Below are positions 27,495 through 27,994 of a stretch of DNA of 46,008 nucleotides, piece after piece (within the stretch, counting starts at the first letter, position 1; every line of letters begins with the position of its first letter). This DNA comes from Octopus sinensis. Taxonomy: Eukaryota. The notes under the pieces were generated by a model. That model was given only the letters and a program-made list of their open reading frames with translations, made no database searches and had not been told where the DNA came from. The position numbers and the translations under genes are program-made. The stretch is from NCBI RefSeq assembly GCF_006345805.1, contig NW_021834684.1:1-46008 (forward strand), read 5' to 3'.

Positions 27495-27994
27495 GTGTGG
27501 CTGGTGGACAATTTTATGACCACTCAGGTGGCGGAAGTAATCTCTTATGTCTACCCAACGACCCCATTTGGGCCAATTATACTTCAAAAGTTGAAGATGT
27601 GGGTTCCATTTATGGTACTGAATATCAATCACACGCATACGACACCAATACCATGTTTTCCTTTGCTAACGCTAAATCACTTAAAGATCACAACGTTCCG
27701 TGCGCTGTCTGTTTGACACGACAACCTGCTGTTGTTATGATGTTACCAGCCAGGACAAAGTGTTACGCTGGTTGGACAGCTGAGTATTCAGGATATTTGA
27801 TGACCGGTTATTTCGGGCAGAAGGGCAGACAAGAATATGTGTGTGTGGACTACGCACCAGAAGCTGATCCAGCAGGTTACAGAAACGAAGATGGAGCTCT
27901 ATTATTTTTCGTTCAGGCTGCTTGTGGTTCATTGCCATGTCCACCGTATGTCAATGGTCAAGAATTATCCTGCGTTGTTTGCAGTAAATATTGA
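27495..27994 (+). CDS. Copy 1 exon 4: short-chain collagen C4-like / spongin-type NC1-related domain
   Basis: ttctag acceptor; open frame GVAGGQFYDHSGGGSNLLCLP...IYGTEY...DHNVPCAVC...GWTAEYSGYLM...CVD...CGSLPCPPY...ELSCVVCSKY*; AATAAA downstream. Confidence 0.9.

Follow-up and report, generated by a model that had tools for sequence, protein, structure and literature searches.

Proteins related to the spongin short-chain collagens (SSCC) were reportedly described by Aouacheria in 2006, and germline-diversified recognition is known from invertebrate families such as the FREPs of snails, the C1qDC proteins of bivalves and the Trf/185-333 proteins of sea urchins, next to the loop diversification of MHC type. 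Here we analyse a locus of Octopus sinensis that invites comparison with both: contig NW_021834684.1 of assembly GCF_006345805.1, positions 1 to 46,008 (hereafter the window, meaning this whole stretch of 46,008 nucleotides), which holds two four-exon gene units (genes A and B) and the first exon of a third (gene C). As deduced from its sequence, the gene product lacks collagen and consists of a predicted type II membrane anchor, a brief stalk and a head of the spongin NC1 type. The domain itself is known; what appears new is a 2.4-Mb tandem array of more than 100 near-identical genes with variable loops, masked by a generic collagen name and by gene models that are in part broken, and this array is likely a variable recognition repertoire.

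Spongins combine a short collagen with an NC1 domain of ten cysteines, seven in common with collagen IV and three of their own, and have no HSQ motif (PMC5395295, in part). The closest named proteins to the window genes are octopus 'short-chain collagen C4-like' proteins, with 71–82% identity. The head of P0010, a full-length relative of 256 residues, is homologous to the SSCC NC1 domain: it shares 51% identity across 190 residues with a collagen-bearing Branchiostoma protein, its last 190 residues contain 10 cysteines (a count only, their positions not being matched to the figure in PMC5395295), and the HSQ motif occurs in none of the family protein sequences examined. Unlike SSCC proteins, the octopus protein has no collagenous domain, but a predicted type II anchor and a helical stalk instead, and its family comprises more than 100 tandem copies with shuffled variable loops. 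The longest Gly-X-Y run is 0–3 in seven cephalopod-type proteins (3 in P0010) versus 6 and 19 in two Branchiostoma members, and Pfam Collagen matches 16 of the 101 aligned members, P0010 not among them. Because it has a spongin NC1 head but no collagen, we class the protein as a collagen-less relative and not as a short-chain collagen. The anchor was called by hydropathy only, from a hydrophobic stretch at residues 15–33 of P0010 (Kyte-Doolittle 2.67).

The likeness to collagen IV NC1 (C4) lies in a two-fold internal repeat and in the predicted fold. In the AlphaFold model of P0010 (101 sequences, pLDDT 87.8), a beta-rich head follows a long N-terminal helix. The top fold matches of the model belong to collagen IV NC1 domains, at middling scores (Foldseek E 5.7e-05; VIA Z 7.3, root-mean-square deviation 5.7, 162 aligned), while the two halves of the head align to each other (HHalign 92.7%, E 5.9e-08). 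In contrast, identity to collagen IV is only 14–26%, Pfam C4 gives no match, and the octopus proteins lack the triple helix. Pfam assigned no family to exon 4 or to P0010. A sequence search of the PDB gave a weak match to Drosophila Viking (E 0.24); a weak match to the Mdm2 RING was rejected as due to chance. The domain is widespread, with 2787 cluster representatives, and no tested binding function was found for it in the literature covered. Two proteins of ca. 3900 residues from other organisms, P0151 and P0152, contain 6–9 matches to it.

With the FREPs, C1qDC and Trf families and with MHC-type systems, the array shares a multigene cluster, apparent conversion, variable loops on a conserved scaffold and old shared alleles, and it presents three of the features expected of a recognition repertoire: many open paralogues, loop-focused variation and exchange between paralogues. 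However, the fold is unrelated, and ligands or immune induction have been demonstrated for those families, whereas the octopus array is known from sequence. The ApeC-containing mucus lectins likewise have a cysteine-rich invertebrate extracellular domain (PMC9585378, in part) and might be a possible functional analogue; the array's feature (Atlas) score to an ApeC cluster was 0.79, below the lead threshold, and Pfam ApeC (PF16977) matched none of the 101 aligned members at E 0.1. The clustered protocadherins of octopus are surface proteins that likewise form a large tandem array (excerpts of PMC6339937), but their fold is unrelated, and the octopus NC1 units each carry their own constant exon.

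The original prediction for this DNA, made by a model, had proposed a candidate undescribed recognition system (immune, allorecognition, chemosensory or venom). The word 'undescribed' stands for the array and its loops, for which we found no description in open-access and bioRxiv full text (subscription papers and genome-paper supplements, which may already list the expansion, lay outside this search), and it does not stand for the domain, a known spongin-type NC1. None of the terms collagen, NC1 and spongin occurs in the portion covered of PMC12373286; in the passages covered of PMC13093298 the name 'short-chain collagen C4-like' appears in a table only, and those of PMC6626399, PMC12040131, PMC13093298 and PMC5867623 hold incidental mentions only. 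If it is a recognition repertoire, the array would provide a first candidate case of immune or self recognition diversified on a spongin-type NC1 domain, and it offers direct test targets in seven codons, four loops and a constant scaffold.

Variable patches in a tandem array of NC1 genes

Most of the NC1 head is encoded by exon 4, which in gene A spans 27495..27994 (copy 1; an open frame of 165 codons; this and all other features of the gene units lie on the + strand). The patch at 27584–27655 differs from its counterpart in gene B (copy 2, 41288–41359) at 13 of 24 residues and 25 of 72 nt; both stretches translate as the original prediction had quoted them, and our recount agrees with its count of residues. 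The identical 72 nt that it had seen nearby turn out to be the longest run shared by the two exons (27686..27757), and the flanking introns are as similar as it had claimed: by substitutions, identity is 93% in intron 3 and 97% in the 3' flank, versus 88% in the exon. The 24 residues in fact comprise two patches that flank a conserved strand, and a further patch proposed at TGYFGQKGRQ is real as well. Altogether we distinguish four patches, each with candidate selected codons: patch 1 (codons 5–10, 27509..27526; candidates 6 and 8), patches 2 (codons 30–37, 27584..27607; candidate 34) and 3 (codons 44–53, 27626..27655; candidates 46 and 47), which are the two halves of the patch first noted, and patch 4 (codons 103–112, 27803..27832; candidates 105 and 107), which contains TGYFGQKGRQ. 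The shared 72-nt run belongs to a homogenised framework between patches 3 and 4.

The patch alleles of both window copies are real and, as had been argued from their clustered substitutions, do not reflect read error. Contigs from runs X3 (138 nt) and X15 (114 nt) contain the copy 1 patch without a single difference; X3, an RNA-like run from another study, is independent evidence, while X15 may be the source sample. The copy 2 patch is identical at 69 of 72 nt to a copy of the genomic array described below (L025, on contig C18). Relative to copy 1, exon 4 of copy 2 contains five deletions and one insertion, each of 1–2 nt, which destroy the frame, and its flank contains 13 single-base deletions versus one insertion across 693 nt. 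Judging from this deletion bias alone, the frameshifts of gene B are probably uncorrected long-read error, although copy 2 exon 4 could alternatively be a pseudogene.

A search of genome G000 with exon 4, in which the best 150 of 279 candidates were scored, and all 150 matched and were retrieved, placed at least 115 matches on a single contig (C18). Of these, 114 lie within 3.67–6.05 Mb, in blocks of alternating orientation and mostly with a spacing of 11–20 kb. We located 153 exon-4 stretches, 132 of them open; on C18, 108 of 116 are open and give 105 different proteins. The same search with exon 1 (best 150 of 215 candidates scored) retrieved 83 stretches with the same protein as the query, itself included. 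Exon 1 matches are interleaved with exon 4 along C18, indicating that each unit has its own exon 1; we rejected a single exon 1 spliced to the whole array, since exon 1 has as many scored matches as exon 4. The family is transcribed and spliced if runs X1 and X3 are RNA, a status that we guess for X1, X3 and X9: coverage by X1 and X3 is confined to exon bins (11 of 30), and both runs show exon 3 joined with exon 4.

Gene models P0002, P0004, P0005 and P0018 lack exon 1 and begin in sequence foreign to the family, so that the public models hide the membrane anchor and likely also the true gene count. Large blocks of the array alternate in orientation (switches at ca. 4.03, 4.74 and 5.16 Mb) and place near-identical copies on opposite strands, which may reflect inverted segmental duplications or assembly duplication. 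Copies at 5.43–6.05 Mb are more divergent and seem to escape homogenisation; some of them have close one-to-one counterparts in O. bimaculoides and O. vulgaris, with 0–10 differences. One divergent paralogue is dispersed outside the array (G000:C2:72019001-72019522) and is 65% identical to Argonauta P0040.

For statistics we used 105 rows, after dropping one copy with compensating frameshifts, three duplicates and all unplaced copies except those of the window; a 'core' set of 91 copies further omits 14 more divergent ones, chosen by position. Entropy is near 0 at most exon-4 positions and reaches 2–3 bits at codons 6, 8, 34, 46, 47, 105, 107 and 142. The alleles at codons 6, 37, 47 and 105 are mostly aromatic, His or charged. 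In exon 1, synonymous diversity (piS) is 0.027 and nonsynonymous diversity (piN) 0.009, among 40 C18 copies picked by position, 26 of which are identical in protein. Among 69 core copies, piN in the four patches is 0.24–0.31, that is, above the diversity of the introns (means of 0.10–0.18) and about ten times the piS of exon 1; piS in framework codons 65–87 is 0.061. Moreover, of the 77 positions at which 74 distant homologues vary, 32 are near-invariant across the array copies; the variation is thus focused.

Mapping the patches on a predicted structure, as had been suggested, was informative at the level of the P0010 model (residue number = codon + 91), in which they fall mostly in DSSP coil between strands. 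Their positions in the two half-domains correspond, patch 1 being aligned to patch 4 and codons 129–135 to patch 2. The loops may share the outer face of a putative trimeric head.

Exchange between copies and probable selection on the loops

Linkage between variable sites decays over very short distances: mean r2 is 0.22 at 1–3 nt, 0.065 at 11–20 nt and 0.03 past 40 nt (rho -0.16, with none of 1000 permutations as low). Likewise, the distance matrices of ten segments correlate weakly with one another (-0.06 to 0.37), as many as 85 four-patch combinations are found among the 90 C18 core copies, and pairs that are identical in one patch share another in 7–32% of cases. In 13 independent sister pairs, whose introns are within 3%, both states were present in other copies at 172 of the 200 differing codons. 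This shuffling is best read as short-tract gene conversion, with recurrent mutation adding to it, and the patchy conversion that the original prediction had offered as one of two explanations is thereby favoured. O. bimaculoides copies have patches that are 1–3 residues from alleles of G000, in other combinations, while whole exons differ at 16–29 residues, and two full-length copies from that species share an exon-1 variant of their own. Although the sequences are few, we infer that constant parts homogenise within species and that loop lineages persist. O. sinensis proteins were excluded as independent support, some of them matching array copies letter for letter.

The other of those explanations, diversifying selection, quite probably acts on the loops of the array, to judge from codon models. 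On a single tree, twice the log-likelihood difference (2dL) between M8a and M8 was 273; however, three recombining nulls alone reached 84–123, and we therefore do not trust this PAML-type test by itself. Under a free-recombination (PAC) model, 2dL was 64 for M8a-M8 and 75 for M1a-M2a, versus -0.1 to 18.4 in six nulls; ca. 5% of the codons had an omega (dN/dS) of 5, and codons 6, 8, 34, 46, 47, 105 and 107 were identified at P>0.9. With the synonymous rate taken from neighbouring codons, 10–12 codons had P>0.95, versus 0–3 in six nulls. The alleles at the seven codons are connected by single-base steps, and multi-base mutation is not needed as a source of the signal. Selection is in this way favoured by three of four tests and unsupported by the fourth, which uses a synonymous rate for each codon (see below). 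Within the patch first noted, piN/piS is ca. 1.0 over the 24 codons together; the signal above 1 resides in single codons 34, 46 and 47.

The noted patch is among the variable loops of a gene that belongs to an array of at least 115, and we consider it moderately probable that this array works as a germline-encoded recognition repertoire. Short-tract gene conversion would homogenise the anchor, stalk and framework and deal loop alleles among copies, and the uniform constant parts would leave chains compatible. Diversifying selection on about seven codons would keep many patch alleles, some of them older than the split from O. bimaculoides. The heads might be displayed on epithelia or shed into mucus, where they would bind foreign surfaces, most likely microbial glycans or proteins. 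A slight hint that the protein is exposed to the outside comes from family peptides in O. vulgaris ink, seen as two single spectra in one of three samples (PMC10142993 supplement, in part).

Several points weigh against a selected repertoire. The selection models are grid approximations of our own, in which kappa was fixed and null replicates were few. When each codon was given its own free synonymous rate, no site exceeded P 0.9 (best 0.86), in a test that recovered 3/7, 3/11 and 7/10 of the true sites simulated at omega 5. Alleles that are kept for long increase synonymous diversity within their own codons and next to them, which may explain this miss, and synonymous diversity at invariant residues is higher near the seven codons (rho -0.20, P 0.044, 100 codons); the miss nevertheless counts against selection. 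Patches 1, 3 and 4 also have high piS (0.33–0.46), with piN/piS of 0.6–0.9, and site variability in the array correlates with tolerance in distant homologues (rho 0.55). The 3' untranslated region of core copies (window 27995–28250) falls into deeply split classes, with a median distance of 0.28–0.30, as deep as the patches; deep divergence is therefore not limited to coding loops, and the classes possibly reflect different regulation. Finally, the match of the patches to the loops by which collagen IV heads dock is tentative, as it is taken from a motif anchor and from residue numbering.

Many of these points would be expected of a neutral patchwork, in which the array provides dosage of a structural or secreted matrix protein (of mucus, ink or glue) and old variants of unconstrained loops are shuffled without selection. 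A piN/piS of at most ca. 1 in three patches, the empty per-codon test, the deep classes of the 3' untranslated region and the variability of the same loops in distant homologues all fit it, as do relatives that are up-regulated in the anemone pedal disc (PMC6626399, in part) or tied to oyster shell formation (PMC12040131, in part). We nevertheless regard it as rather unlikely, because the PAC and local-rate tests lie above their nulls, variation is focused on part of the positions that homologues leave free, and patch piN exceeds both intron diversity and, about tenfold, exon-1 piS.

As another explanation, by analogy with collagen IV, more than 100 anchored NC1 chains with shuffled loops could form mixed trimers that dock head to head, the variable face setting an identity for matching cells, arms or individuals. 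A constant anchor with a variable head, the own exon 1 of each unit and the likely position of the patches at docking loops, according to the anchor motif, the half-domain alignment and the residue numbering, are consistent with such a code, which would resemble the protocadherins or an allorecognition system, on a scaffold that is not known to have such a role. Two NC1 trimers of collagen IV dock by an outer face that includes residues 74–78, E175, R179 and N187, with E40 adjoining R76 (PMC4878091 and PMC6527180, both in part). We find this code improbable, since fast shuffling and trans-species alleles would better fit an arms race with outside agents, and the ca. 14 residues before the anchor are too few for an obvious signalling tail. 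Cysteine-rich extracellular domains, tandem expansion and selected loops are the general pattern of venom families, and the array shares it; yet no toxin family occurs among the named homologues or Pfam matches, and hydropathy predicts a type II anchor instead of a plain signal peptide, which makes a venom or prey-directed salivary family diversifying against prey targets very improbable. It is hardly credible at all that the patches or their mosaics arose from a collapsed repeat through errors of assembly or polishing. The window contig is error-prone, as its single-base deletions attest, and unplaced contigs may be haplotigs; however, this explanation is already largely refuted by the exact copy 1 patch in run X3 and by linkage that decays within ca. 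20 nt, far under read length. Moreover, five of five O. vulgaris proteins tested lie 0–6 residues from one G000 copy, and the mosaics are therefore not assembly chimerism.

Organisation of the gene units and neighbouring sequence

Gene A starts with exon 1 (2985..3126), which contains the start codon and the predicted membrane anchor; with 142 nt, it is 2 nt shorter than other copies and hence out of frame here. Exon 2 (14313..14364), identified by its AG/GT ends and a protein match, encodes the stalk, and exon 3 (25719..25793) the first strands of the NC1 head; RNA-like contigs from family members show exon 3 joined to exon 4 by splicing. Between exons 2 and 3 lies an extra stalk-like exon of 34 nt (22932..22965), cysteine-bearing, in phase and of putative use; it occurs in some annotated relatives too, and could give disulphide-linked or longer-stalk isoforms. 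In gene B, exon 1 (32230..32373) is open and is the one whose protein was found in 83 of the 150 scored genome matches, itself included. It is followed by exon 2 (36374..36425), by exon 3 (39197..39270), which has lost the frame, with 74 nt versus 75 in gene A, and by exon 4 (41198..41691), which holds the copy 2 patch and whose frame is lost through several indels of 1–2 nt, likely read errors. Exon 1 of gene C (45634..45777) opens the next unit, which is truncated by the contig end.

Intron 1 of gene A is ca. 11 kb long because it has been lengthened by broken retroelement open reading frames (4220–12739, - strand). These include reverse-transcriptase pieces (Pfam RVT_1) at 6068–6625 and 9490–10017 and a zinc-knuckle frame at 11729–12739; a frame of 422 codons at 4223–5488 gave no match in a Pfam search. 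Intron 2 of gene A contains a 9-kb insertion, within which a tandem repeat of ca. 1.4 kb occupies 19801–21253.
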